Of a stretch of DNA of 64,000 nucleotides, positions 33,594 to 52,895 are shown in pieces. The notes under the pieces were generated by a model. It saw only the letters and a list, made by a program, of their open reading frames with translations. It did not search any database and was not told the DNA's origin. The translations under genes and the position numbers were made by a program. Source of the DNA: Xanthobacter sp. (GTDB taxonomy: Bacteria; Pseudomonadota; Alphaproteobacteria; Rhizobiales; Xanthobacteraceae); assembly GCA_050252035.1 (NCBI GenBank), contig JBFWLR010000007.1, forward strand, positions 73,379 to 137,378, given 5' to 3'. How positions within the stretch are numbered: position 1 is the stretch's first letter; the number at the start of each line of letters is the position of its first letter.

Positions 33594-33710
33594 GTCCGTG
33601 CCCGTGCGTGGCACGTGGCCTAGTGGCTGTTGCCCGACACGCGGGGCAATTTTGACAGGACAAGCCGGCAAGCGGCCCGTTGGCCGCGCTCCGGCACAGG
33701 AGGATTGATT

Positions 33711-34829: not shown

Positions 34830-37597
34830 CGGGGGCCATCGCCGTCAAGGTCGAAGGCATCACGCATCGCTACGGCAAGGTCCTCGCCCTCGACGATCTC
34901 ACGCTTGAAATTCCCGCCGGCTGCATGGCGGGCCTGATCGGGCCAGACGGTGTGGGCAAGTCCACCTTGCTGGCGCTCATTGCTGGCGTGCGGAAGATCC
35001 AGACCGGCACGGTCCTGGCGCTCAATGGCGACATCGCGGACGAGAACCATCGCCGGCAGAGCTACGCCCGCATCGCCTACATGCCGCAGGGGCTCGGGCG
35101 CAACCTCTATCCCACCCTCAGCGTCTTCGACAATATCGATTTTTTCGGGCGGCTATTCGGCCAGAGCGCGCCGGAGCGGCGCGCCCGTATCGAGGAGTTG
35201 CTGAAAGCCACGGGGCTCGATCCATTCGCGGACCGCCCCTGCGGCAAGCTTTCGGGCGGCATGAAGCAGAAGGCGAGCCTGTGCTGCTCGCTGATGCACG
35301 ATCCCGACCTGCTCATTCTCGACGAACCCACCACGGGCGTCGATCCGCTTTCGCGCCGCCAGTTCTGGGACCTGATCGATTCCATCCGCGCCCGCCGTCC
35401 GCTCATGAGCGTCATCGTCGCCACGGCCTACATGGATGAGGCAAGCCGATTCGATTGGCTCGCGGCCATGGACGAGGGCAAGGTCATCGCCGAGGGCTCG
35501 CCCGCGGAGATTCTTAAGCGCGCGAGCAAAAGCTCGCTCGACGAGGCCTTCATCGCCCTCCTGCCTCCCGAGAAACGCGGACAGCATCAGGCGGTGGTCG
35601 TGCCGCCGCGCCCCGAGGAGCCGGACGCGACACCCGCGATCGAGGCCGAGGGGTTGACGCGGCGGTTCGGTGACTTCGTCGCGGTGGATCATGTGAGCTT
35701 CCGCATCGGGCGCGGCGAGATCTTCGGCTTCCTCGGCTCCAATGGCTGCGGCAAGACGACGACGATGAAGATGATGACCGGTCTGCTGCCGGTGAGCGAA
35801 GGGTCGGCCAAGCTGTTCGGCAAGCCCATGCTGACGGACGACGCGGCGGCGCGCGAGAATGTCGGCTACATGTCGCAGGCCTTCTCGCTTTATAGCGAGC
35901 TGACGGTTCGGCAGAACCTGGAGCTGCATGCCCACCTCTATCACCTGCCGGAAGACCAGATCGAGCCACGGATCGCCGAGTTGTTGGAGCGGTTCGACCT
36001 GAAGGCCGACGCGGATGCGAAGCCGGAAAGCCTGCCGCTCGGCATCAAGCAGCGTCTGCAGCTGGCGGTGGCGGTGCTCCACCGTCCGGCCATGCTGATT
36101 CTCGATGAGCCGACCTCGGGGGTCGATCCGGTGGCGCGTGACAGCTTCTGGAGAACGCTGATCGATCTGTCGCGCAATGACGGCGTCACCATCTTCCTTT
36201 CCACCCATTTCATGAACGAGGCGGAGCGCTGCGACCGCATCTCGCTGATGCACCAGGGCCGCGTACTCGCGGTGGGTTCGCCCGCGACGCTCGCCGCGGA
36301 ACGTGGCTGTGCCACTTTGGAAGACGCCTTCATCTCCTATCTGGAGGAGGCCAGCGGAACGGCAGGCAGCAAGAGAGAGGATGCGGCCGGTGCCGCAGCT
36401 GCGGCACCGGCGCTCGCGCCACCACTTGCGGAATGGGCGCAACGGCATGCCTCCTGGCGGTTCGATCCGCGGCGGCTGTGGGCCTATGCCCGTCGTGAGG
36501 CCATGGAGCTGCTGCGCGATCCGATCCGGCTGATGTTCGCGTTCGTCGGTCCACTCGTCCTGATGCTGGCCATGGGCTATGGCATCACATTCGACGTCGA
36601 GAATCTGAAGTACGCCGCCTTCGATCAAGACCAGACGCCGGAGAGCCGCCGGTTGCTCGAGAGCTTTTCTGGCTCTCATTATTTTTTGGAGCAGCCGCCC
36701 ATCCGCTCCGAGGAGGAGCTGGAACAGCGCATGCGCAGCGGCGAGCTTGCCCTTGCGATTGAGATTCCGCCGGGCTTCGGCCGAGACCTCACGAATTTGA
36801 GGCCGCCTGAAATCGCCTTCTGGGTGGATGGCGCCATGCCGTTCCGAGGCGAGACCGCGAGCGGCTACGTCTCAGGGCTGCTACTGCGCTACGTGAAGGA
36901 TCTCGTGGTCGAGCGCTTCGGTCCCAATGGGCTTTCCTCCGCCTATCTGGCCAACATCAACATCGAGAACCGCTTCCGCTACAATCCGGCGTTCAAGAGC
37001 GTGTTCAGCATGGTGCCGAGCGTCATCGTCATCATGCTGGTGCTGATCCCCGCCATCATGGCCACCATCGGCATCGTGCGCGAGGTGGAGACGGGCTCCA
37101 TCGCCAATTTCCGTTCCACGCCCATCACCAAGATGGAATTCCTGCTGGGCAAGCAGTTTCCCTATGTCGTGGTCGGGATGATGACCTTCCTCCTCCTGGT
37201 GGTCATGGCACGGGTGGTGTTCGGCGTGCCGGTGAAGGGCTCTTTCGGCGCGCTGGCCTTCGGCGCTCTGCTCTATGTGTTCGCCACCTGTGGCTTCGGG
37301 CAGCTCATCTCCACCTTCACCCGGACCCAGGTCGCAGCGGTGTTCGCCACCACGGTGCTCGCCGTCATTCCGGTGGTGAACTTCTCCGGCCTGCTGGTGC
37401 CCGTCTCCTCCCTCACCGGCACGGGCCGGCTCATCGGCCTCCTGTTTCCGTCGGCCTGGTTCCAGCCGATCAGCGTCGGTGTCTTCACCAAAGGGCTGGG
37501 CTGGTCCGAGATCTGGCTCAACGCCCTCGTCCTCGCCCTGTTCGCGCTGGCCTATTTTCTCGGCGCGCACATGATGCTGCGCAAGCAGGAGAGCTGA
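34826..37597 (+). CDS. rbbA: RbbA-like double-ATPase ABC protein with C-terminal permease
   Basis: GPDGVGKST and GSNGCGKTT Walker A motifs, LSGGMKQK, C-terminal ABC-2 membrane domain, 923 aa. Confidence 0.92.
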   Translation: MTGAIAVKVEGITHRYGKVLALDDLTLEIPAGCMAGLIGPDGVGKSTLLALIAGVRKIQTGTVLALNGDIADENHRRQSYARIAYMPQGLGRNLYPTLSVFDNIDFFGRLFGQSAPERRARIEELLKATGLDPFADRPCGKLSGGMKQKASLCCSLMHDPDLLILDEPTTGVDPLSRRQFWDLIDSIRARRPLMSVIVATAYMDEASRFDWLAAMDEGKVIAEGSPAEILKRASKSSLDEAFIALLPPEKRGQHQAVVVPPRPEEPDATPAIEAEGLTRRFGDFVAVDHVSFRIGRGEIFGFLGSNGCGKTTTMKMMTGLLPVSEGSAKLFGKPMLTDDAAARENVGYMSQAFSLYSELTVRQNLELHAHLYHLPEDQIEPRIAELLERFDLKADADAKPESLPLGIKQRLQLAVAVLHRPAMLILDEPTSGVDPVARDSFWRTLIDLSRNDGVTIFLSTHFMNEAERCDRISLMHQGRVLAVGSPATLAAERGCATLEDAFISYLEEASGTAGSKREDAAGAAAAAPALAPPLAEWAQRHASWRFDPRRLWAYARREAMELLRDPIRLMFAFVGPLVLMLAMGYGITFDVENLKYAAFDQDQTPESRRLLESFSGSHYFLEQPPIRSEEELEQRMRSGELALAIEIPPGFGRDLTNLRPPEIAFWVDGAMPFRGETASGYVSGLLLRYVKDLVVERFGPNGLSSAYLANINIENRFRYNPAFKSVFSMVPSVIVIMLVLIPAIMATIGIVREVETGSIANFRSTPITKMEFLLGKQFPYVVVGMMTFLLLVVMARVVFGVPVKGSFGALAFGALLYVFATCGFGQLISTFTRTQVAAVFATTVLAVIPVVNFSGLLVPVSSLTGTGRLIGLLFPSAWFQPISVGVFTKGLGWSEIWLNALVLALFALAYFLGAHMMLRKQES

Positions 37598-37598
37598 G

Positions 37599-38816
37599 AT
37601 GTCGCGTACGGATCGGGCCGAGCCGCCGCCGCGTGAGCCGGCATCACCGGTTGAAACGGCCCAGCGTCTCGATCGCCGGGGCGGGGCGCTGTGGTGGCAC
37701 CTCACCAACATCTATCGGCTGACCCTCAAGGAGCTGCGCAGCATTCGCGCCGATCCCATCATGCTGGCGCTGGTCGCCTTCTCCTTCACCATCGCCATCT
37801 ATGCCGCCGCCACCGGTGCCTCGACAGAGGCGACCAACCTGTCCGTCGGCATCGTGGACGAGGACCATTCCGACCTGTCGCGACGCATCGCGGCAAGTCT
37901 CACTCCGCCGACGTTCAAGCCTGCGGTGGAGATTTCCGTGCGCGAGATCGACTCGTCCCTGGATGCGCAGCGCTTCATCTATGTGATCGAGATCCCGCCC
38001 CGCTTCGAGCAGGATGTTCTGGCCGGACGCGAGGTGTCGGTGCAGATCAATGTCGATGCCACGGCTGCCGCGCAGGCCTTCAATGGCATGACCTACATTC
38101 AGAACATCATCCTCACCGAAACCGCGAGATTCATCGCCCATCGCGAGGTGTCGGGCTCTCTCCCGGTGAAGGTGGTCATGCGCTCGAAGTTCAATCCGAA
38201 CTTCAAGTCGAGCTGGTTCACCTCGGTGATGCAGATCATCAGCAACCTAACCATGATCACGGTGATGCTCAGCGGCGCTGCCCTTATTCGCGAGCGTGAG
38301 CAGGGCACGGTGGAACATTTGCTGGTCATGCCGGTGGTCCCCTTCGAGATCATGTTCGCAAAGGTGCTGGCCAACGGCATCGTGGTGCTGGTGGCCACCG
38401 GCCTATCCCTGGTGCTGGTCGTGGAGTGGTGGCTGCAGGTGCCGATCGCGGGCTCGCTACTGCTCTTCCTGGCGGGGGCCTGCGTCTATGTGTTCACGGT
38501 GGCCTCGCTCGGCATCGCGCTGGGCACGGTGGCGACTACCATGGCGCAGTTCGGCCTGCTCTCCATCCCGGTGCTGCTGGTGATGATGCTGCTGTCCGGT
38601 AGCACGACACCGCTGGAAAGCATGCCCGTCTGGCTGCAGTACCTCATGCGGCTCATCAGCCCGACGCCTCATTTCGTGATCTTTGCGCAGGACGTCCTCT
38701 ATCGCGGAGCCGGAGCATCCATTGTCTGGCCGCAGATCCTGGCGACGGCGACCATCGGTGCCCTCTACTTCATCGTCGCCCTGCGGCGGTTTCGTCGGGT
38801 CATCTTCACCGGGTGA
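37599..38816 (+). CDS. ABC-2 permease (YhhJ-like)
   Basis: KELRSIRAD, REREQGTVEHLLVMP, SGSTTPLESMP. Confidence 0.9.
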   Translation: MSRTDRAEPPPREPASPVETAQRLDRRGGALWWHLTNIYRLTLKELRSIRADPIMLALVAFSFTIAIYAAATGASTEATNLSVGIVDEDHSDLSRRIAASLTPPTFKPAVEISVREIDSSLDAQRFIYVIEIPPRFEQDVLAGREVSVQINVDATAAAQAFNGMTYIQNIILTETARFIAHREVSGSLPVKVVMRSKFNPNFKSSWFTSVMQIISNLTMITVMLSGAALIREREQGTVEHLLVMPVVPFEIMFAKVLANGIVVLVATGLSLVLVVEWWLQVPIAGSLLLFLAGACVYVFTVASLGIALGTVATTMAQFGLLSIPVLLVMMLLSGSTTPLESMPVWLQYLMRLISPTPHFVIFAQDVLYRGAGASIVWPQILATATIGALYFIVALRRFRRVIFTG

Positions 38817-39389: not shown

Positions 39390-40985
39390 TCAGCGACGGG
39401 TTTTTTCCTCCTCGATCAGCGAAATCTTCGACAGCTTGCCGACAGCCGTGCGTGGGAGCGCGTCGCGAATCTCAAGGGCTTTAGGCATCTCGATGCGCGA
39501 GATCTGCGTTCTCAGAAACGCGAAGATCTCCTCCACCGTTGCCCGTGCGCCGGTGCGCAGGCTCACATAAGCTTTCGGCGCTTGTCCGCGGTAAGGATCA
39601 GGAAGACCGATCACCACAGCCTCCAGCACCGCGGGATGCCGATAGAGCGCCTCCTCGATCACCCGTGGATAGACATTATAGCCCCCACAGATGATGAGGT
39701 CCTTGGCGCGATCGACCAGGAAGTAAAATCCATCCTGGTCTCGATACCCGATATCACCCGTCCGCAGCGCCCCCGCGATGAACGTATCGTGGGTCTCATC
39801 GGGGCGCTGCCAATATCCCGCCATGACCTGCGGCCCGCGAACGAAAAGCTCCCCCCGCTCGCCGTCGGGCAGCACCCGCGACAAGTCGGCCGGATCCCGC
39901 ACCTCGATGATCGTGTCGTCCAAGGCGGTGCCGATCGATCCGGGGCGCGCCGGGCCGGTGAATGGGTTGCAGGTCACGACGGGCGAGGCCTCGGACAAGC
40001 CATAGCCCTCGACGAGCGTACAGCCCGTGAGTCCCTCGAAACGCTCAAGCACGTCGAGAGGCAGCGGCGCACCACCCGAGATGCAGAAGCGTATCGACGA
40101 CAGATCGGCCGTCCGGTTCTCCATCGCGCTGTTGATCGCGGTGTAGAGGGTCGGCACACCGGGAAAGAGCGTGGGTCGCCTGGCCTCGATGAGGGCGAGC
40201 ACCTCCTCGATGTCGAACCGCGCCACGAGGATGAGCTCGGCGCCGCGTGCGACCGCGAGATTCATCACCGCCGTCATCGCAAACGCGTGGAACAACGGCA
40301 GCACGCCGAGCAAACGGTCCTGAACCGCCTCCATTTCCGGAATTCGGCGGTTCAGCTGCATGGCGTTCGCCCAGATGTTCGCATGGGTGAGCATGGCGCC
40401 TTTGGGGCGGCCCGTCGTCCCGCCCGTATATTGAAGGACCGCCAGGTCACGCTCCGGGACGACCTCCACCGGGGCAGGCATCTCGCCATAGGTGAGCAGC
40501 GACGTGAAGCCGACGATTCGCGGATCATCGCCCGACACCGGGGCCTCCTCACCCATGGGGCACAGAATGATCGTGCGCAGAGAGCTGGTATCGAGAACGG
40601 ACGTGACCTTCTTCGCCACCTCGGGGCTGTCGGCCGCAACCATGATCGAAGTCCCTGAATCCTCGATCTGGTGATGCAGTTCGCGCTCCACATAGAGCGG
40701 GTTGAAATTGACCACGACGCCCCCCGCGCGCAGCACAGCGAAGTAAAGAACCACGAAATGAAGCGAATTCGGCAGGCATAGACCAACCCGTGTTCCCTTC
40801 GCCACTCCCATCTCCTGCAGCCCGCAGGCCGCTTTGTTCACGAGCGCACCCAATCGCGCGTAGGAGAGGCTCCTTCCCGCGTGATCGACGGCGGCGCGGT
40901 CGGGAAACCGCGCCACGGCGTCTTGAAGGAGATCGAAGACCGGACGCGCGACGATCGCAGCGCTCCGCTGCGGCTCCTGCCTCAT
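39390..40985 (-). CDS. Long-chain acyl-CoA synthetase (FadD-like)
   Basis: YTGGTTGRPKG, VEGYGLSEASP, LRTGDIG, KDLIICGGYNVYP. Confidence 0.92.
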   Translation of the reverse strand: MRQEPQRSAAIVARPVFDLLQDAVARFPDRAAVDHAGRSLSYARLGALVNKAACGLQEMGVAKGTRVGLCLPNSLHFVVLYFAVLRAGGVVVNFNPLYVERELHHQIEDSGTSIMVAADSPEVAKKVTSVLDTSSLRTIILCPMGEEAPVSGDDPRIVGFTSLLTYGEMPAPVEVVPERDLAVLQYTGGTTGRPKGAMLTHANIWANAMQLNRRIPEMEAVQDRLLGVLPLFHAFAMTAVMNLAVARGAELILVARFDIEEVLALIEARRPTLFPGVPTLYTAINSAMENRTADLSSIRFCISGGAPLPLDVLERFEGLTGCTLVEGYGLSEASPVVTCNPFTGPARPGSIGTALDDTIIEVRDPADLSRVLPDGERGELFVRGPQVMAGYWQRPDETHDTFIAGALRTGDIGYRDQDGFYFLVDRAKDLIICGGYNVYPRVIEEALYRHPAVLEAVVIGLPDPYRGQAPKAYVSLRTGARATVEEIFAFLRTQISRIEMPKALEIRDALPRTAVGKLSKISLIEEEKTRR

Positions 40986-41046
40986 GGCACAATCCTTCCT
41001 TCTCTTTCGGTGTGATGGCGGCGCAGCCCGGCAAGGACCTTGCAGG

Positions 41047-42303
41047 TCACCATTTGTAGTTCACAGTAAGGGCTGCGATGTCCACCTGGGCGTGGGCGCT
41101 GCCAATGAACGGCACCCCGGTGAAGCGTGGGTTGGAGGTGTCGGTCAAAACGATGTCGCCTTCGCGCATAAACACATGGGCATATCCGAAGTCGAATGAG
41201 AGGTTTTTCGAGTACTGGTAGCTGCCCCCCAGACCGACCATGATGCGGTTACTGTCGGGAAGCCTTGGGTCGCGGGTTTGTGCGGTGATCGGAGATTCTT
41301 CGTAATTGATACCCGCGCGCAGCGTGGTTTCGGCGCTCCATTTATATTCGAGGCCGCCGGCGACCAACCATCCGTCCCTGTAGTCGAAATTCAAGGGGAC
41401 GACCGGCCCGCTGTCCGAACTGACGATAAACCGGTTGAAGGCCGACCAGTTTGTCCATTGATAGGTCATGTTCAAGGTGAAGTCCGGCGTCAGGACCTGT
41501 CTCAGTCCAACATTCAGCTGTGCCGGCAGAGTGAGGTCGAGACTGATGTCCCGCCGTCCGGGGAGGACGAGGCCGGACAATCCGGGGAAGGGAATGTTGT
41601 TCTCCAAAGTCCCATCCAGGCTGGGAGAGACTTCCGAGCGATAGCCGACACCGATCACCGTTCCCTCGAACGGCTTCAGGAGCACCCCGAGCTTATAACC
41701 CAAGCTCATGCCGTCAGCGTTGAGATTCAGATAGCCCTCGGGCATCAGTGGGGTGAGGCGTGAATTCAGTTTTGTATTCAAGTAATTGATTTGCAGTCCG
41801 GCACCAATGGAGAGCCAGTCCGTGATTTTATAGGCAATGGTGGGCGTCACATTGATGTCCACCACCTCGGTCTTCGTTCCGTAATAGGATGTATAGAGTT
41901 CGGGAGCGATGTCGGTCATGAGGCCGAACGGCGCATCGACGGAAACGCCGATCCAAAAACGGCCATTCACTTGGTAGGAGAGCTGGGCGGCCGGCACCGG
42001 GCGGCCACCGTTCGCGATGTCATCGGTGTTTCCCGTCGGCGCGTCGACGTGGATGAGCGGCTTGATGTAGGAGAGGGTCGCTGATGCTTGCAGCCCGTCG
42101 AATTCGGACAGCGTCGCCGGATTGAAGGCCATCGAGGCCAGCCCGGCGCTGCCGGCGGCCGTGCCGGACGCGGCAAGGCCCGTCCCCGCTGCGCCATATT
42201 CATTGAGCCCAAAAGCTCCCGCTTGGGCATGCTCAACCGAAAGCCCCGTCGCGCCGCCCGCAACCAGAAGCAGGCGGCCAACTTTAGCCACATCTATTTT
42301 CAT
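41047..42303 (-). CDS. FadL/OmpP1/TodX-family outer-membrane channel
   Basis: Signal peptide, AGAFGLNEY, NPAT motif, PFGLMTD, RDPRLPDSNR, C-terminal YKW. Confidence 0.9.
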   Translation of the reverse strand: MKIDVAKVGRLLLVAGGATGLSVEHAQAGAFGLNEYGAAGTGLAASGTAAGSAGLASMAFNPATLSEFDGLQASATLSYIKPLIHVDAPTGNTDDIANGGRPVPAAQLSYQVNGRFWIGVSVDAPFGLMTDIAPELYTSYYGTKTEVVDINVTPTIAYKITDWLSIGAGLQINYLNTKLNSRLTPLMPEGYLNLNADGMSLGYKLGVLLKPFEGTVIGVGYRSEVSPSLDGTLENNIPFPGLSGLVLPGRRDISLDLTLPAQLNVGLRQVLTPDFTLNMTYQWTNWSAFNRFIVSSDSGPVVPLNFDYRDGWLVAGGLEYKWSAETTLRAGINYEESPITAQTRDPRLPDSNRIMVGLGGSYQYSKNLSFDFGYAHVFMREGDIVLTDTSNPRFTGVPFIGSAHAQVDIAALTVNYKW

Positions 42304-42735
42304 TTTTCACCACCGGTTTTTTTATGACCGTGCGGCGCCGTACGCTGACCTATCTGCGATCATTCCCTGAGGGGGGCAGAGAACTGCACCGAGCGATACT
42401 TCGTCACTCAGGCCTTCTCCAGGCTCGCCTCTATCCTGATTGCTCCGGATCGTGCTGTACTGGCCCTCGGCATTCCTCCACAGATGTCATTTAGATTTCC
42501 ATTCCCGGCGCGGAAAAGGTTCTGGACGGCCAAACACCGGTTCTTTTCGGCCAAAGCGGACGAAATACGTACTGGATGCCTTGAAAAGGCGAATATATAT
42601 TCAGATGAACCATTTATTTTGATAAATATTTGGGTAAAATAGTTTGAAAGCTCGACAACAGAGATGGCGCAGGCGGATTTTCATATCTTGTCATGCGGGG
42701 CGACGGGTGAAAAATCTCAAGGTGTGACTGCGGAC

Positions 42736-43797
42736 TTAAGCGGATCGAAAGTCCCCAGCTTCGACCGATTGCCGCACCGTTTCGCGCCATGCCGTCCGTT
42801 CGCGAAACGCGGTCGGCGTTTCGTTGGCCCAACGCTTGAAGGCCTTTCGGAAGCTGGACGCGTCGGAAAACCCAAGACGTGCGGCCACTTTCTCGGTGGT
42901 CAGATTCGTATTGGACAGGAGTTCGCACGCAAGGCGACCGCGGATGTCCTCGGTGAGGTTCTGATAACTCACGCCAACTTCCATCAGGCGGCGCGTCAAC
43001 GTGCGTGGCGACATGTCGAACTGGTCGGCGATATGGGCAAGAGAGGGCGGGCGGCCGTTCGCGCTCCCTTCAAGGCATGCGGCCTTCACCGCATGGACGA
43101 TGGCCGGAGCGTCACCTTGGAGCGCGACGGTCATCTGCGTGCACATCTGCGCAGCCGCGCGATGGGCGAAAGAGCTTGCATTGGGGCAGGCTCGGTCGAG
43201 AATTGGGGCTTCGAAATGCCACTCGATGACTCCGGCATCGAAGATGACCTTATGACCAAAGGCCCGCGCATAGTCTGAGGCATGCGCAGGCGCTGGATAT
43301 GGCAGCAGAACCCGGAGGGGAATGACCTTGTCGCAGACCACCTGCTCGAAGAGTCGCCGCATCTTGCTGAAGGAGAATTCAACGATGGTCGGCAGCAACT
43401 GCCTAAACCCGATAATATCGTGTGCCTCTATGATGGCGGTGTCCCCCTGGAGGCGGAAAGAGCGCTCCAGGACCGAACCGGCGAGCCGAGCGTGAGTGAG
43501 GCCGAATCGCAGCGCGTCATGCACCGTTGGACAGGTGGAGACGGCAAAGCCGTAAATGCCATAGTCGCTCAGGCGATGTCGCAGCCCGGCTTTCATGGCG
43601 AAGCTCGGATCCCGACTAACCCGTCGCGCCAGTTCGAAAAACTTCAGCTTCTGGCCGAGAGAGATCCTGAGCGAGGGGTCATCGAGACCGGAAGGTTTGA
43701 GTCCGATGGGCCGCAGCAAATCCTCTCGCAATTCTCCCTGCTGTTCCAGTTCCTGGCAGAGCGCTCCCAGACCGACCGTGGACACGGTGTATTCCAT
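42736..43797 (-). CDS. AraC family regulator
   Basis: C-terminal MSPRTLTRRL...LGFSDASSFRKAFKRW; start MEYTVSTVG. Confidence 0.9.
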   Translation of the reverse strand: MEYTVSTVGLGALCQELEQQGELREDLLRPIGLKPSGLDDPSLRISLGQKLKFFELARRVSRDPSFAMKAGLRHRLSDYGIYGFAVSTCPTVHDALRFGLTHARLAGSVLERSFRLQGDTAIIEAHDIIGFRQLLPTIVEFSFSKMRRLFEQVVCDKVIPLRVLLPYPAPAHASDYARAFGHKVIFDAGVIEWHFEAPILDRACPNASSFAHRAAAQMCTQMTVALQGDAPAIVHAVKAACLEGSANGRPPSLAHIADQFDMSPRTLTRRLMEVGVSYQNLTEDIRGRLACELLSNTNLTTEKVAARLGFSDASSFRKAFKRWANETPTAFRERTAWRETVRQSVEAGDFRSA

Positions 43798-44166
43798 CTG
43801 TAGCACTCTGGCTGGCGAATGCGCGCGTCGAGAGCAACCGCGCGAGGAGAATGCCGCCTGTGCATTTCGAGTCTTCTCCTTCATCCTCTTCCTCCCCCGG
43901 AGAATGGCGGCGAGCCGCCCGAATGATGACCCACCGACGCATCGTTCCGATTCCCGGCGAGGCGTCGGCGTTTCGTTGCGGCGCAGGGTCAGCTCCACAA
44001 GGCCGTCTCAACACCGCGCGAAGGGCCACACGGGACATATGCCGCAAGGAACGGAAGGGGGGAGCCCGGGAAATGGCCTGGAGACCTCGGCGCGTGACGT
44101 CGCTCTGCTTTTGCGTGGAAGGTCCGTTCCCCTCTCTCATTCACGAACTGGCCATTTCAGCCCTTT

Positions 44167-45051
44167 TCACTGAGCAGCCTTCGCTTCGCGGGCTTTGAGG
44201 ATATTGAGTGCGACGTCGACGATCATGTCTTCCTGGCCACCGATCATGCGGCGCTTGTCGAACTCGGTGAGGATGTCTCGGGCGTCGACGCCATAGGTCT
44301 TCGCGGCATTTTCCACATGACGCAGGAAGCTTGAATAGACTCCGGCATAGCCCAGCGACAGGCTCTCGGGATCCACCCGAACCGGGCGATCCTGAAGCGG
44401 ACGCACAATGTCGTCGGCGGCGTCGATGAGCATGTGCAGGTCGCAGCCTGTTTCGATGCCCATCCGGTCGAGCACCGCGATGAGTGCCTCCAGCGGCGCG
44501 TTGGCCGCGCCCATGTGCCGGCGAGGGACGAATCCACCCGCACCGCGCCGGCCTCGATGCCCGCCACGGCATTGGCGACGCCGAGCGTAAGGTTGTGATG
44601 GGTGTTGCACGCCGATCTCGGTCTCCGGCTTCAGCGCCCCACACACCGCCGTCACCCGCTCGGCATACTGGGGCGGCAGAAGCGCGCCGGTGGAGTCCGT
44701 CACATAGACGCATTCGGCGCCATAGCTCTCCATGAGCAGCGCCTGCTCCACGGGCGCGATCTCCCAACCGTCCGGCCCCGCCATGTCGTCGAACAACATG
44801 CCGTAATCGGGCTGGTCCATGCCGAGATGCTTCTGCACCGCCAGCGAGGTGAGGCCGATCTTGCGGCCCACCAGACGCCGGCCCTCATCGAGCGCGCGCT
44901 TGGTGTTCACCTCCTGCGCCGCATAGGCAAGGTCTAGCGCGCCTTTAGGCAGGAACTCGCGCACCGGCGAGCACGCCTTGCCAGAGCCATGCGCGGCAAA
45001 CAGCTGTGCGGCGACATCATCGACCACAGAGCTCCAGATTGGATCCCACAT
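44167..45051 (-). pseudogene. mhpD'-'mhpE: In-frame fusion of 2-oxopent-4-enoate hydratase 5' part to 4-hydroxy-2-oxovalerate aldolase 3' part
   Basis: N-terminal GRKIGLTSLAVQKHLGMDQPDYGML (MhpD/HsaE-type) joined near 44751 to LMESYGAECVYVTDSTG...LGYAGVYSSFL...GGQEDMIVDVAL (MhpE/DmpG-type); two compensating frameshifts near the HHNL motif. Confidence 0.9.
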
Positions 45052-45074
45052 AATGACCTCTTAGCGGTATTCCG

Positions 45075-45614
45075 TCAGCCGGGGCGAAACTCATCCAGAG
45101 GACTGAAGCCGCCATAGCGGGCATCCAGATAGATCAGGGGTTCGACGCATTCTCGCCGTGCCGCCTCCAGGACCGTGCCGAAGACCACAACATGAGTGCC
45201 CTGAGGAACGATGACGGTGCAGCGGCAAGCGAAGCTCGCCTGGGCGCCAGACACCACCGGCGCGCCGGTGCTTTCGGCAGGCTCGAAGAACTTCTCACGG
45301 TCCTGATGCGGCGTTCCGCCGGCACAGTCCTGCGCCACCGCCATCTGGTCGCGGGTCAGGGCCGAAACTGAGAAGAGCATGCCTTCCTGAAGCTCCTTTG
45401 CCAGGGCACCCGTCGTGTTCAGGCACAGCGCAAGCATCGGCGGTTCCAGGCAGACGGACACCACCGCCGTCGCCGTGGTGGCGAAGAAAGCGGCATCCTC
45501 TCTTTTCATGGCGACTACATGCACGGTCGCCGCCACGCCGCGCAACACTTGCCGCATGGCGGCAGGCTCCATGACCGCCTCGGATAAGCTATGCATGCCG
45601 ACCTCGATCTTCAT
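45075..45614 (-). CDS. Flavin reductase (HsaB/HpaC-like)
   Basis: ATAVVSVCLEPP, FSVSAL, GTHVVVFGTV...PLIY...YG. Confidence 0.88.
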   Translation of the reverse strand: MKIEVGMHSLSEAVMEPAAMRQVLRGVAATVHVVAMKREDAAFFATTATAVVSVCLEPPMLALCLNTTGALAKELQEGMLFSVSALTRDQMAVAQDCAGGTPHQDREKFFEPAESTGAPVVSGAQASFACRCTVIVPQGTHVVVFGTVLEAARRECVEPLIYLDARYGGFSPLDEFRPG

Positions 45615-45649
45615 CTTCCACCTCAATTCCCCAAATCCGGCACTCGACC

Positions 45650-46090
45650 TCAAGCGCATGGCGCGCCGCCATTTTCGACGCCCCGGGCGATCTGGACACG
45701 CAGCCCTTGGGATGCGCTCTTCTGGGCGATCCATTTCAGATGGGCCGTGAAGATGCCCCTGTCCCGGATGCTTCGAAGGCATTCCTCTGCGTCGTCCGAG
45801 AGCACGAGGGGCGGTCCGTCCGGCGCGCGCGAAAGCGCATCCAATCCGGCCGCACGCACCATCTTCTCGTGAATGCGGCCGGCCTCGACCCGCATTTGCT
45901 CGACAATCGCGCCCTCGGTCGCGCCGGGTCCCAAGGGGCGGCGTCGGAAGCCGAGAAAGGGGTGCCCGTTCTCGACCAGCACGAAACATTCGAGCCACCC
46001 GCCGCCACCAGCCTCCACCGCGACCGTCAGAGCCGCGGCGAAGGGGAAAGGGCAGGTCGTGGACGCGCGAAAGAAGCAGATCACCTCCAT
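45650..46090 (-). CDS. Hypothetical protein (146 aa) inside the catabolic operon
   Basis: Co-oriented, GGGAG RBS before ATG 46090, fills the gap between hydrolase and reductase. Confidence 0.5.
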   Translation of the reverse strand: MEVICFFRASTTCPFPFAAALTVAVEAGGGGWLECFVLVENGHPFLGFRRRPLGPGATEGAIVEQMRVEAGRIHEKMVRAAGLDALSRAPDGPPLVLSDDAEECLRSIRDRGIFTAHLKWIAQKSASQGLRVQIARGVENGGAPCA

Positions 46091-46130
46091 GGACGCTCCC
46101 GCCCTCTTCCAGAGCCCGAGGCGGGCAGCC

Positions 46131-46973
46131 CTAATGTGCCGCCAGAAAACGAATGGCCTCGGAGTTGAACGTCTCTCGATGTTCGACCTGAGCCCAATGA
46201 CCGCACCGAGACAGCAAGATGATCCGGCAATCGGCGATGCCGCGGGCAAGGATCGGTGCCGTGTCCACCGGGCAGAAATTGTCCTGCGCACCCCAGAAGG
46301 CGAGGGTCGGACAGGTGATCGCAGCGATCTGTTTCGACATATCGTCGATCTTCAATGTCGAGAGCACCTGACGTGGCTGCGTTTTGGCCACCGCCAGCCG
46401 TTCCTGGATGAGCGCATCCGAAATCAGTCCCCGATCGAACACCTGCAGATCGAACACCTGTCTCAGCTTCGCGGCCGTGGGGCCTCCGGGCCCCAGCAGC
46501 GCCCACATCATTGCCCGGATGCCGGACATCCGGATATAGCGCAGCTTGCCAGCAAGTCCGCCCGGCGCCAGCAGAACCAGTTTCCGCACAAGCTTCGGAT
46601 GGTCCAAAGCGAAGCGCAACGCGACTGCGCCGCCCAGGGAATTGCCGACGATGTTGACCGCCCCGAGGTCAAGGCGTTCGACCAGCGCCGTGAGCGCCTT
46701 CACATGGAAAGCAAGGTCATAGCGCTGATCGGCGGGCTTGGTTGAGTTGCCGTAGCCGATGAGATCAAGGCCGATGCAACGAAACCCCGCCTCGGCGAAT
46801 TCCGGCATATTGCCGCGAAAATTGCTCCAGGCGCTCGCCCCTGGCGCACTGCCATGGATGAACACGGTCGGGGAACCCTCCCCGACCTCCACATAGTGCG
46901 CCCGCAAACCCGGCTCAATGTCGACGAACCCTTCCGTCTTCCGGATCGGTGCCATTGCCTCAGCCATGCTCAC
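46131..46973 (-). CDS. Meta-cleavage product hydrolase (BphD/HsaD/MhpC-like)
   Basis: FIHGSAPGASAWSNF, GNSLGG nucleophile elbow, CGHWAQVE. Confidence 0.92.
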   Translation of the reverse strand: MSMAEAMAPIRKTEGFVDIEPGLRAHYVEVGEGSPTVFIHGSAPGASAWSNFRGNMPEFAEAGFRCIGLDLIGYGNSTKPADQRYDLAFHVKALTALVERLDLGAVNIVGNSLGGAVALRFALDHPKLVRKLVLLAPGGLAGKLRYIRMSGIRAMMWALLGPGGPTAAKLRQVFDLQVFDRGLISDALIQERLAVAKTQPRQVLSTLKIDDMSKQIAAITCPTLAFWGAQDNFCPVDTAPILARGIADCRIILLSRCGHWAQVEHRETFNSEAIRFLAAH

Positions 46974-47293
46974 AGTACCGTCATGATTTTCGGCGCGAGG
47001 GTCAGCCCACGCAGCCGATCACCCTCGAAGCGGATCTTGCGGGTCATCGCAGCAACGTGCGGCGCGAGCTTCTTCGAGCGCAGATCAAGCCAGACGTTCA
47101 TTGGCGCAAGGATGGTGAAGTCGGCTTCCCCTTCCACGTCGCGCGTCAGCGTCGGCTCGTCCTGGCGCGCGTCGATGAAGACATTTCCCTCCCCATCGAA
47201 GACGAACTTCATGGTGATCCCGAGGTTTCCGAGGCCGCGGACCTTGTTGGAGAGTTCTTCCGCGAGAGCATCAAAAGTCGGCTGATCGGACAT
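46970..47293 (-). CDS. SCP2 sterol/lipid-binding domain protein
   Basis: 107 aa; EADFTI...AAMTRKIRFEGD pattern typical of SCP2. Confidence 0.75.
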   Translation of the reverse strand: MSDQPTFDALAEELSNKVRGLGNLGITMKFVFDGEGNVFIDARQDEPTLTRDVEGEADFTILAPMNVWLDLRSKKLAPHVAAMTRKIRFEGDRLRGLTLAPKIMTVL

Positions 47294-47330
47294 GTTTTAA
47301 TCCCTTCATCAAATTTCGATGTGCCTGACG

Positions 47331-48215
47331 TCAGTCCTTATGACCCCAGGAGCTGATGGCGTCATAGGTCTGGACTTCCCATCGATCCTCGTCGTCGATC
47401 AGGACCCCGTCGGTGCCGTATTCGATCGCGAAATGACTGGGCGTGCAGACATAGAAGGACAGCATCCGGTCATTGGGATGCCGGCCGATATTCATGTAGA
47501 AGTTGATCTCCTGCCGTTTCGCCCGCTCGAGCGCGAGCCCGACCGTATCGACGGTTTCCACTTCGAACATCACATGGTTGAGCCGGTGCGGCATGGGCAC
47601 CCCGGCGAGGGCGAGGGTGTGGTGCCGCGGGTTCACATGAAAGAAGGTGAAGTTGATCGGCAGGCCCTGGATGTCCTGCACGATATAGTCCGATAGCTTG
47701 AATCCCAGCACGTCGCGATAGAAGACCTCGCACGCGGGAAGATCCATCGCCCCGATGGCGATGTGGCCGAAGCCCAATTCCCCCGTCAGATAGCCTCCGG
47801 GCACCAAGGGAAGCACGAGGTCATCGCACTTCTCCTTCGGATTACATGAAATCTCAATCCGAAGCCCCTCCGGATCGCGAAGCCAGATCATCGCCTCCAC
47901 GTCGCGTTCGGTCAGTTCAGACGCCGTGGCGGGAAAAACCTCGACCCCTTTGTGCCGCAGATCCTGCTCGAACGCCTTCAGCGCGTCGACATGAGCCACC
48001 TGGAAGCCCGCTGCCCAGATGTCCTCGCTCGCCTCGCCGCCTTTGACGCCCTTGATCAGGAGCCGATAGGAGCGATTGTCCATGCGGACCCGCAAAAAGG
48101 TGCCGTCGGGGTCTTCACTACAGGTCATGCCGAGAAAGTCCGTCACATAGGACTTCCAGGCCTCGCTCTTGTTCGATTCGATGATGATATAGCTGAGTTG
48201 CCGGATGCCGCTCAT
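47331..48215 (-). CDS. Type I extradiol ring-cleavage dioxygenase (BphC/HsaC-like)
   Basis: Two VOC domains; FGHIA, RHHTLAL, LNHVMFEV, GRHPNDRMLSFYVCTPS..IEYG with Fe ligands H,H,E present. Confidence 0.93.
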   Translation of the reverse strand: MSGIRQLSYIIIESNKSEAWKSYVTDFLGMTCSEDPDGTFLRVRMDNRSYRLLIKGVKGGEASEDIWAAGFQVAHVDALKAFEQDLRHKGVEVFPATASELTERDVEAMIWLRDPEGLRIEISCNPKEKCDDLVLPLVPGGYLTGELGFGHIAIGAMDLPACEVFYRDVLGFKLSDYIVQDIQGLPINFTFFHVNPRHHTLALAGVPMPHRLNHVMFEVETVDTVGLALERAKRQEINFYMNIGRHPNDRMLSFYVCTPSHFAIEYGTDGVLIDDEDRWEVQTYDAISSWGHKD

Positions 48216-48236
48216 GGTCGTAAGGCTCCGTCTTGC

Positions 48237-49448
48237 TCAGATGAACAGGCCGAGCATGTCGCTCGGAACGTCTCCGAGGGCGATACGCCCGAACACGCTG
48301 CCCCATTTCGTGCGATTGTTGATTGCGTGGACGCGTGCGGCCTGGATGTCCCGGTACAGGCACTGAATGGGCTGACTCATGACCAGCGAGCGGGCGCCGC
48401 TGGCGACGAAGATCTTGTCCGCCGCAAGCTGGGCGAATTCCACGAGGTTGCAATGATCGAAGCGGTAGCGGGCACGCTGTGCAAGATCCAGAATGTCGCC
48501 GCTGTCGACCTTATCCATGATTTCATTGTAATTGGCCGCCAGTTGCAGGCGTGCCGCGCGCAGATAGGCATCAGCTTCGGCGATACGGAGCTGCGTCGAT
48601 TGCTCTTCGGCCCAGCGGCTGCCCGTATAAACGCTCGCCGCCTGGGCGCAGTTCTCGACAAAAATGTCGAGCATGCGCTGCGCGGCACCCAGGGCGGGTG
48701 TGGTGATGCACGCGCCGAAGATCGTCGGGAAGGGCACCATGAACAAAGGCGCATCCGCCGTTCCCTCGGCCAGGCCCGGCGTCGAGAAAGTCTGGCTGGC
48801 CACGATCGGTAACTGCCGATACAGCGGAACGAAAGCGTTCTTGACCTCGACGCTCTTGCTGCCCGTGCCCCGAAGGCCCATCACATCCCAGTCTTCGATG
48901 ATCTCGAAGTCGCTCTTGGGAAGCAGAAAAGTGCGATAGTCGGGAAAAGGCGCATCGCTCTTGATCGTGCCGCCCAGGAGAATCCACTGCGCATGGTCCA
49001 CGCCGCTGGAATAATGCCAACGGCCGCTCAGAATGCATCCCCCCTCGACCTCTTCCACTGTTCCAGTGGGCGCGTAGGACGACGACAACAGGACGGTGGG
49101 GTCCTCTGCCCAGACATCCTCCTGCGCTTTCTTCGAAAAATGAGCGAGCTGCCAGTTGTGGACGCCGAGGACACCCATGATCCACGCGCTGGACGGACAA
49201 GCCTGCGCCAAGAGTTCCTGCACGTGGAAGATATCGGCGGGATGGGACTGGTATCCACCCCAATAGGCGGATTGGAACATCCTGAAAAAGCCAGCCGACT
49301 GGAAATCGCGGATGGTGTCAGGACGCACGGATCCGAGACGTTCGGTTTCCCGTGCCCTCTCACGAAGGCGTGCTTGAATATTTTCAGCTCTTTTTAGGAG
49401 TTCTGAGGCTTTAAGCTCAGGTGCATCCACCGTTGCATTGATATTCAT
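48237..49448 (-). CDS. Two-component flavin monooxygenase, oxygenase subunit (HsaA-like, ACAD fold)
   Basis: ACPSSAWIMGVLGVHNWQLA, LSSSYAP, GRWHYSSGVDHAQW, DWDVMGLRGTGS, YRDIQAARVH. Confidence 0.9.
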   Translation of the reverse strand: MNINATVDAPELKASELLKRAENIQARLRERARETERLGSVRPDTIRDFQSAGFFRMFQSAYWGGYQSHPADIFHVQELLAQACPSSAWIMGVLGVHNWQLAHFSKKAQEDVWAEDPTVLLSSSYAPTGTVEEVEGGCILSGRWHYSSGVDHAQWILLGGTIKSDAPFPDYRTFLLPKSDFEIIEDWDVMGLRGTGSKSVEVKNAFVPLYRQLPIVASQTFSTPGLAEGTADAPLFMVPFPTIFGACITTPALGAAQRMLDIFVENCAQAASVYTGSRWAEEQSTQLRIAEADAYLRAARLQLAANYNEIMDKVDSGDILDLAQRARYRFDHCNLVEFAQLAADKIFVASGARSLVMSQPIQCLYRDIQAARVHAINNRTKWGSVFGRIALGDVPSDMLGLFI

Positions 49449-49783
49449 GGCTGGCGTTTCCTCCAATGAAAGCGAGCAGGAACGTCGTCGCAAAGTTGTC
49501 CTTTGCGCGCGCGGAGTGTTCAGACGAGAAAATGACGTCGCGCATGGTTCATGCGCGCATGTCTCAGCCTTCGCGCGAAGTGTTCCTTGCGCCAAAAGGG
49601 AAGCGGAAGACTTCGTGCGTTATCGCAGACCACTCAGGGGCGCATCGTCGATGGCACCGGGTGGCAGTGCGGTCTTTGCCGCCCCGCGATGGGCCCACGT
49701 CAAATGACGCGTCAAATTTCAGGGTTTGGCGTAAAAGCCGTGATTATGTTTTTTCGGCATCGTTATTCCTCTGAGTTCAAAAA

Positions 49784-49799
49784 TGAACACATGTGATCA
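49784..49799. promoter_or_regulatory. Palindromic operator candidate
   Basis: TGAACACATGTGATCA (core CACATGTG) between the monooxygenase operon and the divergent tetR. Confidence 0.55.
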
Positions 49800-49973
49800 A
49801 TTCTGTCAATAGGCGGAGTTGCCGTTTCCGGCGCCCCTGCGGCATAGCGCATGAGCATGGCTTGCGCCGAGTGTGGTAAGAGTCGGCCAGATATCGCTCG
49901 CGGCCGGGTGCGAGCCGGCTTTCGTGCAGTTTTAAACAGCAATGTATCGCGGCCCACCGGAGCGGACCTGGCG

Positions 49974-50615
49974 ATGGAGAGTCGATTGGTGATGGCGGGA
50001 AACAGTTCGCAGCAACAGATCTATAGGGCGGCGGTTCATCTTTTCGCCGAGCGCGGCGTGTCACAGGTGACCGTCAAGGACCTAGCCCAGGTGGCTGGCG
50101 TCGCCAGGGGTACAATATACAATAATATCAAGGATATGGATCAACTTTTCGAGGACGTCGGGCTCAGTCTTGCCAGCGACATGAACGACCGTGTCATCCG
50201 CAGCTGCGGAGATTTGGCGGACCCGGCGGTCAGGCTTGCGACCGGCATGCGCCTTTATGTGCGCCGGGCGCACCAGGAACCGGATTGGGGCCGCTTCGTC
50301 CACCGTTTCGGGTTCTCCATCACCTCGATGAAGGGCATCTGGAACAATCGGCCCCTGGATGATTTGCGTGACGGGATTCGAATGGGGCGTTATTCTATCC
50401 AGAACGAGCAATTGACGTCGGCCATCAGCTTCGTCGCCGGCACGACGATTGGGGCGATTTATCTGGTTCTTGAGGGTGCCAATACTTGGCGTGCCGCCGG
50501 CTCGGACGCTGCGGAACTGACCCTGACTGGCCTGGGGGTGCCCCGGCATGAAGCGCGAGCCATCGCCGCAGCCGAACTGCCGCAGCTTGTCTCTTCCGAA
50601 GCCTGGGCGGACTGA
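49974..50615 (+). CDS. TetR family regulator
   Basis: VTVKDLAQVAGVARGTIYNN HTH; start 49974 or 49992. Confidence 0.9.
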   Translation: MESRLVMAGNSSQQQIYRAAVHLFAERGVSQVTVKDLAQVAGVARGTIYNNIKDMDQLFEDVGLSLASDMNDRVIRSCGDLADPAVRLATGMRLYVRRAHQEPDWGRFVHRFGFSITSMKGIWNNRPLDDLRDGIRMGRYSIQNEQLTSAISFVAGTTIGAIYLVLEGANTWRAAGSDAAELTLTGLGVPRHEARAIAAAELPQLVSSEAWAD

Positions 50616-51479: not shown

Positions 51480-52325
51480 GGATGGGGACTCGTTCATATC
51501 CATTCGCTTACAGCAGCGACGAGAGCAACGGCGGACAGGTAGTTTGTTGCCAGTCGATCATATCGTGTTGCGATGCGGCGCCAGTTCTTGAGGCGGCAGA
51601 AGAGGCGTTCGATGACGTTTCGTCTTCGATATGCTTTTCGGTCGAGAGGATATGGGGTTCTTCTTGCGGCAGATGATGGGATCACGGCCTCGACCTTCGA
51701 TTTTGCCAGCCATTGCCACAGGCTGTCAGCATCGTAAGCCTTGTCGGCGAGGAATCTGCTCGCTGGGCGGGCGGCCTCCAGCAAAGGGATGGCCATTTTG
51801 ATGTCTGCGACGTTTCCGGGTGTCAGGGCGAAAGCGACCGGTCTGCCGCGATCATCGGCCAGACAATGGATTTTGCTTGTTCTTCCGCCACGCGAGGTGC
51901 CAATCGCCTGAGCCCACGCCCCCCTTTTGAGCCTTGGGCGGAGCGATGTGCCTTGATGTGCGTGCTGTCGACGGAAAGCTCTTCGGGCACAGGGCCCGAT
52001 GCAGCCATCCTTTCGAAGAGGCGGTGCCAGATGCGCCGTTGCGACCAGCGATGATAACGGTTGTAGATGGTTTTTGCTGGTCCGTATTCAACCGGAACAT
52101 CACGCCAGCGGCATCCGACTTTCAACACATGAAGAATGCCCGAGATGACCCGTCTATCATCGACACGCCGTGCTCCAGGCTGGTTCTTGGGTAGATGTGG
52201 TTCAAGCGCCTTCCAGGCTGCATCTAAAAGCCAAAACAGATCGCTCATCACTGTCTCCTCCGCGAAAAACTCAATCACACGAGGAAACAATCAATTACGA
52301 CAATAACTTGATTAGGTCCACATCC
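51480..52325 (-). mobile_element. IS5-family element, 846 bp
   Basis: IRs GGATGGGGAC / GGATGTGGAC; DDRRVISGILHVLKVGCRWRD, VDSTHIKAHR, RRNVIERLFCRLKNWRRIATRYD; internal stop in orfA. Confidence 0.9.
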
Positions 52326-52327
52326 TA

Positions 52328-52895
52328 GGGCGTAGACTCATAAGCTCTGACACCAGATCCTCGCTGCGACGAGTTTTAGGGCGGCCATGTAGTTGTCTGG
52401 CCGTTTGTCGTAGCGCGTGGCGATGCCCCGGAACTGTTTGATCCGGTTGAAGAACCGCTCCACGAGGTTTCGCTGGCGGTAAACCCATCGCGAGAAGGCG
52501 AAGGTTCCCTTGCCGGTTGGCCTTCGGTGGGATGTTGGCCCAGGCTTTTCGCTGGGCAGCCTTTGCGCGTATGGCGTTGCTATCGTAGCCCTTGTCGGCC
52601 AGCAGGATGTCGCCCTCCCCAAGGCCGTCGATCAATACTTCGGCCTCGGCGCAGTCGGCAACCTGACCGCCGGTCAAGCGGAGGGTGACGGGGCGACCTT
52701 CGGCGTCGACGAGCGCGTGGATCTTGCTGGTGAGCCCGCCGCGGGAACGTCCCATGCCGCCATCATCTGCATCCCCCTTTTTCCCGTGGCCGCGTGCTGG
52801 TGGACGCGAACACTGGTCGCGTTGATTATGACGATGTCGCCGTCGTAAGCCTCGGAAACTGCTTCGAGAAGTCGATCCCAGACCCCGATTTTCGC
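52328..52895 (-). mobile_element. IS5-family element lacking its 5' end
   Basis: IGVWDRLLE, SRGGLTSKIHALVD, ADKGYDS, RNLVERFFNRIKQFRGIATRYDK; fused directly to the MFS remnant. Confidence 0.85.

Follow-up and report, generated by a model that had tools for sequence, protein, structure and literature searches.

A minus-strand cluster of ten genes with a divergent TetR-family gene was analyzed in a 64,000-nucleotide (nt) stretch of the genome of a Xanthobacter sp. (contig JBFWLR010000007.1, positions 73,379 to 137,378; hereafter, the window). On balance, we favor the reading that the cluster is a horizontally acquired operon, which is repressed by a RolR-like TetR and whose products would carry out the upper steps in the meta-cleavage of a poorly soluble phenol. 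Gene content, integrity and conservation, the separation of the oxygenase clade, the co-inheritance of the SCP2 protein, the operator, the pseudogene, and the genomic island were computed in this study. The gene list, gene order and coordinates of the first-pass annotation, which had been made from the sequence letters and a list of open reading frames (ORFs), were borne out by the ORF list and by profile searches (Table 1), in which the family matches were far beyond chance. The meta-cleavage system with a two-component flavin hydroxylase was also recovered (group D oxygenase and reductase; domain and PDB matches). The module is set apart by its separate oxygenase clade, its obligate SCP2 partner and its RolR-like regulon; its logic is otherwise conventional. 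By protein comparison with the intact cluster of locus L004, all of the core genes were of full length (identity: oxygenase, 80 %; dioxygenase, 72 %; SCP2, 78 %; hydrolase, 74 %; 146-amino acid (aa) protein, 45 %; reductase, 57 %; TetR, 71 % over residues 1-201). The start codon of TetR was placed near 49989 because the alignment to the L004 TetR spans residues 1-201. Intact copies of the cluster were also looked for, and the order oxygenase-dioxygenase-SCP2-hydrolase was found in about 15 independent loci of Alpha-, Beta- and Gammaproteobacteria, most of which also have the reductase and intact genes for the hydratase, the acetaldehyde dehydrogenase and the aldolase.

The search for relatives of the oxygenase covered 5.8 billion proteins. 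About 50 clusters were obtained at 64-81 % identity, followed by a gap down to about 42 %, where the proteins named HsaA begin. Tree reconstruction was performed with 80 sequences, including 29 HsaA-type sequences from Actinomycetota, Sphingomonadaceae and Pseudomonadales for comparison; the 50 clade members were monophyletic (support, 100/100) on a branch of 1.05 changes per site. The phylogeny, which the first-pass annotation had named as a check, places the oxygenase in its own clade, separated from both the actinobacterial and the proteobacterial HsaA. The score against the HsaA model NF045629 was 366.2 bits (cut-off, 450), and the nearest PDB entries were 2RFQ and 3AFE (both HsaA), with matches to C2-HpaH structures as well. 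With its acyl-CoA-dehydrogenase fold and a separate Flavin_Reduct partner in the operon, the protein belongs to the group D two-component flavin monooxygenases. Named carriers of the clade were few: Crenobacter oryzisoli SG2303, Thalassolituus sp. LLYu03, and metagenome-assembled genomes of Alphaproteobacteria, Rhodoblastus, Burkholderiales, Oleiphilaceae and Rhodospirillaceae. For metagenome loci, 10 clade members were found among the best 80 of 390 relatives. The clade was not found on plasmids (none of 39 matching records in 72,556 plasmids; best match, 40 % identity), nor in 18 genomes of the genus and 120 genomes of the family (best match, 38 %). The cluster had been suspected not to be a close ortholog of a characterized one, and this holds: none of the equivalog cut-offs was reached, the oxygenase falls in a clade by itself, and a paper describing an HsaA-like/SCP2 meta-cleavage cluster was not found in the literature searched. 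Note that the genome has a second, unrelated HsaA-like oxygenase (37 % identical; G000:C21:1041-3637, locus L038), which adjoins a meta-cleavage-product (MCP) hydrolase (33 %) and a hydratase, and is without SCP2.

The SCP2 protein scored 35.1 bits against Pfam PF02036 (gathering cut-off, 21.3). Its family comprises 56 clusters of 105-107 aa (54-78 % identity), the count and spread of which mirror those of the oxygenase clade, and the SCP2 gene adjoins the oxygenase gene in every clade locus whose contig extends that far. This adjacency is kept in L003 and L045, although the dioxygenase or the hydrolase is located elsewhere in these loci. From family size and adjacency, the SCP2 protein noted earlier in the operon is thus a dedicated partner that is inherited together with the oxygenase. 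The AlphaFold2 (AF2) model of the protein (predicted local distance difference test (pLDDT), 90.9) has the SCP2 fold, with template modeling (TM) scores of 0.72-0.75 to human SCP2, rabbit SCP2 and the SCP-2L domain of MFE-2, and also matches UbiJ and the SCP2 domain of the alkylsulfatases SdsA1 and Pisa1. By this resemblance of the fold, the protein is a predicted lipid carrier. The sequence identity to UbiJ and the SdsA1 domain is only 14-22 %. UbiJ and the SdsA1 domain serve to bring substrates with a lipid tail to enzymes, and the Ubi pathway includes flavin hydroxylases that act on a polyprenylphenol. The module SCP2, in contrast, is free-standing in a catabolic ring-cleavage operon, an arrangement of which no description was found.

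The nearest solved structures of the TetR protein were 3AQS and 3AQT (E-value, 4e-16), which are those of RolR, the TetR-type resorcinol repressor of Corynebacterium glutamicum (PMC3086911). Both proteins have the TetR_C_40 domain, and both are encoded divergently from an aromatic catabolic operon that RolR represses and the window TetR would repress; the similarity is distant, and a shared ligand or operator may not be read from such a match. The palindrome TGAACACATGTGATCA, noticed in the first-pass annotation, aligns with TGAAC-N6-GTTCA in four relatives, whereas the rest of the intergenic region is unconserved. It has one mismatch to this consensus, is the one block that stays conserved when the intergenic region is aligned with those of L004, L001 and L067, overlaps a TTGACA-like hexamer, and is found about 300-380 nt ahead of the oxygenase start. 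Of 73 loci examined, 12 had exact copies of TGAAC-N6-GTTCA, each of them intergenic and beside cluster genes. The palindrome also precedes FadL in L071 and an HlyD-ABC2-OEP efflux operon in L068, and in Thalassolituus it precedes a gene for a 220-aa hypothetical protein and the divergent Amidohydro_2 / DUF1302-DUF1329 genes. No operator was found near the AraC or ABC-2 genes of the window within one mismatch.

Two side observations concern the operator. The spacer between it and the oxygenase start is about 290-380 nt long in five loci (window, 49449-49783; L001; L004; L067; L071) and is unconserved in sequence. In L003 (Thalassolituus sp. LLYu03), three exact operators were found (9328, 11632 and 14640), one of which has two Amidohydro_2 (decarboxylase-type) genes on one side and a DUF1302-DUF1329 outer-membrane pair on the other; such an arrangement hints at a precursor with a carboxyl group, for example, an alkylsalicylate, that could be decarboxylated to the phenol. 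Molybdopterin enzymes that resemble the large subunit of pyrogallol hydroxytransferase (PF21423) were found near the core in Crenobacter (L006:17639-20611) and near a related TetR-FadL pair (L072:1132-4119). Together with the RolR-like TetR, these enzymes prompted the consideration of an alkylresorcinol as the substrate. This candidate was set aside on a chemical argument, because cleavage of a hydroxylated resorcinol would give acetylpyruvate, whereas the intact relatives keep the MhpD-type hydratase, the dehydrogenase and the aldolase for 2-hydroxypentadienoate.

The dioxygenase is a two-domain type I extradiol enzyme. It scored 253.2 bits against the BphC model TIGR03213 (cut-off, 366.45) and 223.2 bits against the HsaC model NF045631 (cut-off, 450), and was equally similar to 23AL/9X2G, HsaC (2ZI8) and BphC (1HAN) in PDB. 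The conserved His and Glu residues align with those of 2ZI8 and 1HAN, and we take them to be the iron ligands, as in BphC. For 9X2G and 23AL, the literature search gave only unrelated matches. The hydrolase scored 187.3 bits against HsaD (NF045632; cut-off, 400) and 169.9 bits against BphD (TIGR03343; cut-off, 462.15); its nearest PDB entries, matched over the full length, were BphD (2OG1), MhpC (1U2E) and HsaD (7ZJT). The nucleophile motif GNSLGG at residue 110 and the CGHW motif near the C-terminus identify it as an MCP hydrolase. The dioxygenase and the hydrolase are thus nearest to enzymes that act on 3-substituted catechols with large substituents (BphC, HsaC, BphD and HsaD). The score of the reductase against HsaB (NF045630) was 47.2 bits (cut-off, 230), and the flavin reductases of other sub-clades were non-orthologous (20-23 % identity). 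The 146-aa protein had no Pfam match even at an E-value of 5, and its AF2 model (pLDDT, 84.9) had no fold match in PDB (best E-value, 0.036; TM score, at most 0.33). Its homologs were found in L004, L001 and L067 (34-45 % identity) as well as in L040 and L074, and in L071 (9146-9796) a single reading frame runs from it into the N-terminus of the flavin reductase. This fusion suggests that the two proteins may work together. The 218-220-aa hypothetical proteins of L003 and L005 were also considered as its homologs and were unrelated on comparison.

The families and the enzyme logic are those of HsaAB-HsaC-HsaD-HsaEFG in Mycobacterium tuberculosis and Rhodococcus jostii RHA1 (TesA1A2/TesB/TesD/TesEFG in Comamonas testosteroni): a group D hydroxylase giving a 3-substituted catechol, a type I dioxygenase, an MCP hydrolase, and a hydratase, dehydrogenase and aldolase. 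The module could therefore be read as the proteobacterial equivalent of HsaAB/C/D (TesA1A2/B/D), degrading ring A of a 9,10-secosteroid or an estrogen; in both NCBIfam and PDB, HsaA, HsaC and HsaD rank first or nearly first, and SCP2 is by name a sterol carrier protein. We regard this as very improbable. All four Hsa equivalog cut-offs were missed by wide margins, the oxygenase, about 42 % identical to HsaA, falls on the far side of the long, fully supported branch described above, and the hydratase of the relatives is MhpD-type. The first-pass annotation, which had kept a secosteroid among its candidates, had seen no kshAB in the window; KshA was missing from the window and from the whole genome (KshA_C, PF19298, without a match in the 99.8 %-complete genome), and no KshA, KstD or Ipd was called beside the six relatives for which precomputed Pfam annotation of the flanks was available. 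Unlike the Hsa system, the module stands alone without KshAB, KstD or genes for rings C and D, and its regulator is RolR-like, not KstR-like. To our knowledge, the hsa operon has no SCP2 gene, whereas the module has one.

With a steroid put aside, the upper pathway for a poorly soluble phenol may be drawn as follows; what each enzyme catalyzes, what SCP2 does and what kind of substrate is used are inferences from the families above. FadL would admit the hydrophobic substrate across the outer membrane, and the 107-aa SCP2 would hold it in the cytoplasm and present it to the soluble enzymes. With reduced flavin supplied by the reductase, the HsaA-like oxygenase would hydroxylate the ring ortho to the phenolic hydroxyl group to give a catechol with the bulky substituent at position 3. 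The BphC/HsaC-type dioxygenase would then cleave the ring beside the substituent (proximal extradiol cleavage), and the BphD/HsaD-type hydrolase would release 2-hydroxypenta-2,4-dienoate and a carboxylic acid bearing the substituent, which an acyl-CoA ligase may activate. In the intact relatives, the hydratase, acetaldehyde dehydrogenase and aldolase would complete the pathway; in this genome, the dienoate would go to other genomic copies of these enzymes, or the pathway would be a relic (see below). The substituent is expected to be large and hydrophobic, given that the dioxygenase and the hydrolase are nearest to BphC/HsaC and BphD/HsaD and that an SCP2 is dedicated to the module. The biphenyl enzymes BphC and BphD offer a parallel: the module dioxygenase and hydrolase are as similar to 1HAN and 2OG1 as to HsaC and HsaD, and the expected products are alike (the dienoate and an acid carrying the substituent). 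However, the catechol of the biphenyl pathway is formed from an arene by a Rieske dioxygenase and a dehydrogenase, whereas that of the module would be formed from a phenol by a flavin monooxygenase.

As for the substituent, a long alkyl chain is plausible. In the sharper form of the phenol reading, which is that of the first-pass annotation and to which we give limited confidence, the substrate would be a long-chain phenolic lipid (a 3- or 2-alkyl(en)ylphenol, an alkylcatechol of the cardanol/urushiol type, or a polyprenylphenol), and the released fatty or isoprenoid acid would enter beta-oxidation. The dedicated SCP2, with a fold like that of carriers of C16 acids, sterols and polyprenyl tails, is in line with this, as are the FadL tied to the core in two loci, the acyl-CoA ligases that adjoin many loci, and the occurrence of clade members in the oil- or lipid-associated Thalassolituus and Oleiphilaceae. 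The chemistry would also fit by analogy: HsaA hydroxylates a meta-alkyl phenol between the hydroxyl and alkyl groups, so a 3-alkylphenol may give a 3-alkylcatechol. However, SCP2 folds bind bulky non-chain ligands too, no beta-oxidation genes are conserved beside the core, and the neighboring ligases are non-orthologous (only 25-32 % identical to the window FadD). The window FadD instead resembles a native pair of the genus: relatives without the core have paralogous FadL and FadD genes (36 % and 57 % identical, respectively, to those of the window).

AraC, FadL and FadD had all been counted as members of the system. AraC and FadL were linked to the core in a second locus, L071 (AraC, 45 %; FadL, 54 %; TetR, 61 %; core, 65-77 % identical to the window), where the arrangement differs; FadD was not conserved with the core, and its link to it is weak. 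The FadL subfamily (50-57 % identity) was also found beside TetR_C_40 regulators in L072 and L073, and there was no close FadL homolog in 400 genomes of the class.

Alternatively, the substrate may be a compact hydrophobic phenol (2-hydroxybiphenyl, 2-isopropyl- or 2-sec-butylphenol, thymol, carvacrol, a naphthol or a phenolic diterpenoid), with SCP2 and FadL coping with its low solubility and toxicity, a possibility to which we give limited confidence. The dioxygenase and the hydrolase are equally near to biphenyl and steroid enzymes, and RolR, the nearest relative of the TetR, senses a small phenol. Efflux genes recur beside the core (RND in L007; AaeAB-like in L004; ABC-2 in L068, with the operator, and in the window, 33630-38816), which suggests a toxic inducer. 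Other group D oxygenases also take small alkylphenols, for example, IppA1 and MpdA (PMC12442392). However, pathways for compounds of this kind are not known to require a lipid carrier, whereas the SCP2 of the module is strictly co-inherited. In AphAB-AphC of Rhodococcus (PMC6710988) and IppA1A2-IppB of Rhodococcus sp. D-6 (PMC12442392), a two-component flavin hydroxylase starts alkylphenol catabolism and extradiol cleavage follows; IppA1, although group D and HsaA-related, is only about 32 % identical to HsaA, hydroxylates in the para position and feeds a different route, that of hydroquinone cleavage (PMC12442392). As far as seen, neither the Aph nor the Ipp system has an SCP2 or FadL partner. 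AphA is reportedly of the HpaB type and acts on para-alkylphenols. Para-alkylphenols such as nonylphenol would suit a dioxygenase of the BphC/HsaC type (type I.3) poorly.

The lower pathway is a different matter. The gene that had been described as a hydratase::aldolase fusion was found to be a deletion pseudogene by comparison with L004, L001 and the genus relative G011, and the pathway is thus not complete in the window, the hydratase::aldolase remnant being dead. The 294-aa ORF matches positions 4-98 of the hydratase model and then positions 120-333 of the aldolase model (NCBIfam). At the junction (44752/44753), the first approximately 100 codons of the hydratase are joined to the last approximately 215 codons of the aldolase (from codon approximately 130), and about 1.9 kb is absent in comparison with L004, L001 and G011 (nucleotide and protein comparison), that is, the C-terminus of the hydratase, the entire acetaldehyde dehydrogenase and the N-terminus of the aldolase. 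Two indels in the aldolase remnant (+1 near 44608 and -4 near 44516) bracket the HxH metal motif, which is now out of frame in the alignment. Against the aldolase model TIGR03217, the remnant scored 216 bits (cut-off, 286) with a partial match (120-333) in a disrupted frame. No long shared repeat that could account for a mis-assembly was found at the junction. In the intact L004, the lower set consists of an MhpD-type hydratase (under the cut-off of its model), a canonical acetylating acetaldehyde dehydrogenase and a 4-hydroxy-2-oxovalerate aldolase. The DNA of the remnants (window 44183-44958) is 86-87 % identical to the lower-pathway genes of G011 and 67-80 % identical to those of L004; being nearer to G011, the remnants may have recombined, or been gene-converted, with native paralogs.

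An intact aldolase is encoded elsewhere in the genome (C11:56682-57683; 543.9 bits against TIGR03217, above the cut-off). Additional copies of the hydratase, acetaldehyde dehydrogenase and aldolase genes run off contig ends (C14:2-948, C21:2-972, C5:241149-249573, C11:134436-134561 and C3:256768-257654), and the genome seems to have at least three near-identical lower meta-pathway sets that the assembler left unresolved. Since these copies exist, the missing steps could be supplied in trans.

The surroundings of the operon were compared with those in the relatives G005, G008 and G017 of the genus. A stretch of about 34.6 kb (window ~25.3-59.9 kb) is absent between the adjacent flanks in these three genomes. 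It contains transposase fragments of the IS5 and IS3 types (31536-32150; 51823-53391, consisting of 51823-52290 and 52312-53391; 54743-55294), tRNA-Ser (27699), tRNA-Leu (57527) and mosaic pieces, and looks like a mosaic variable island. The operon within it appears to have been acquired horizontally. The locus might then be a non-functional relic of an island flanked by insertion sequences (ISs), which has lost its lower pathway and is heading to deletion. The 1.9-kb deletion with the two indels, the transposase fragments and the absence of the stretch from the three relatives accord with this, as does the size of the genome (3.26 Mb, compared with about 5 Mb for most of the genus). Nevertheless, the seven core genes, AraC, FadL and FadD are intact and of full length, the operator is retained, and the missing steps are encoded elsewhere; we consider a relic doubtful. 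Note that the ORF 52312-53391 (minus strand) contains a fragment of an MFS transporter and a DDE transposase domain, and probably represents a transporter gene that an IS element has interrupted.

Several points weigh against the favored reading of an acquired upper pathway for a poorly soluble phenol. The cluster is located in a variable island ridden with ISs, and its lower pathway, judging from the deletion and the indels in the assembly sequence, is broken in this copy, which may be decaying and unexpressed. The oxygenase clade is without a characterized member. Except for SCP2, the accessory genes (FadL, ligases and efflux) vary by locus and are mostly non-orthologous. The FadL of the window has no recognizable TetR operator within one mismatch, and the link of FadL to a shared regulon therefore comes from L071 only. 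In addition, channels of the FadL family also carry small aromatics, such as toluene, and FadL is thus no proof of a long chain.

Beyond the upper pathway itself, we tentatively consider that the module may represent an undescribed type of pathway, in which a dedicated SCP2 carrier in the cytoplasm delivers membrane-soluble phenolic lipids to three soluble enzymes (hydroxylase, dioxygenase and hydrolase), the ring being converted to pyruvate and acetyl-CoA and the tail to a fatty or isoprenoid acid (candidates: alkylphenols and alkylcatechols of the cardanol/urushiol type and polyprenylphenols). If this is true, the module would be the catabolic counterpart of the UbiJ-dependent ubiquinone metabolon. 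Long-chain or bulky phenols occur as plant phenolic lipids, alkylphenol pollutants and quinone precursors, and almost no genetic basis for the bacterial breakdown of the natural ones was found in the literature searched. The module is rare and mobile, with a fixed set of a distinct hydroxylase clade, a lipid carrier, a repressor of the phenol type with its operator, and, in some copies, a channel; its eight to ten genes form a defined target for expression and screening. Should SCP2 prove necessary, this would show that a carrier can feed water-insoluble substrates to soluble ring-cleavage enzymes, which would be useful for bioremediation and for valorizing phenols derived from cashew shells or lignin. 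As for this genome, a foreign catabolic island would have been caught midway in decay.

The features are listed in Table 1. Gaps of -4 to 40 nt separate the tightly packed seven ORFs that start with the oxygenase and end with the hydratase/aldolase remnant, with a GTGA overlap shared by the SCP2 stop codon and the hydrolase start codon, whereas AraC and the FadL-FadD pair are separated by gaps of 267 and 432 nt; FadD is located 61 nt downstream of FadL.

Table 1. Features of the putative phenol meta-cleavage cluster (positions in the window)
Feature	Position	Strand	Basis or remark
FadD-like acyl-CoA ligase	39390-40985	-	AMP-binding domains; long-chain ligase models all under cut-off
FadL/TodX-family outer-membrane channel	41047-42303	-	Pfam Toluene_X, 276 bits
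AraC-family regulator	42736-43899	-	Arabinose_bd and HTH_18; NCBIfam QhpR and CypR matches all under cut-off
Hydratase/aldolase pseudogene	44167-45051	-	Split NCBIfam matches, 294-aa ORF
NAD(P)H:flavin reductase, putative oxygenase partner	45075-45614	-	Pfam Flavin_Reduct (PF01613)
146-aa protein, fold family unassigned	45650-46090	-	Without Pfam match; restricted to an alphaproteobacterial sub-clade
MCP C-C hydrolase of the BphD/HsaD kind, alpha/beta fold	46131-46973	-	
Stand-alone SCP2 protein, predicted lipid carrier, 107 aa	46970-47293	-	Pfam SCP2 (PF02036)
Type I extradiol dioxygenase of the BphC/HsaC kind	47331-48215	-	PF22632 (BphC_D1) and PF00903 (Glyoxalase)
HsaA-like oxygenase, two-component flavin monooxygenase, group D	48237-49448	-	PF08028 and PF02771, acyl-CoA-dehydrogenase fold
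Operator palindrome TGAACACATGTGATCA	49784-49799	n/a	About 335 nt upstream of the oxygenase start
TetR-family repressor, TetR_C_40 (RolR-type) ligand domain	49989-50615	+	Pfam TetR_N and TetR_C_40

Besides the genes in Table 1, a recurrent triad was observed near the core or near a related FadL in L005, L007/L044, L068 and L072. It consists of a dioxygenase with the glyoxalase fold (365-386 aa), a FAH-family hydrolase (about 318 aa) and an acyl-CoA synthetase of the PRK07529 type (633-656 aa), and is similar to the portion of the ipp cluster that serves hydroquinone cleavage (PMC12442392).

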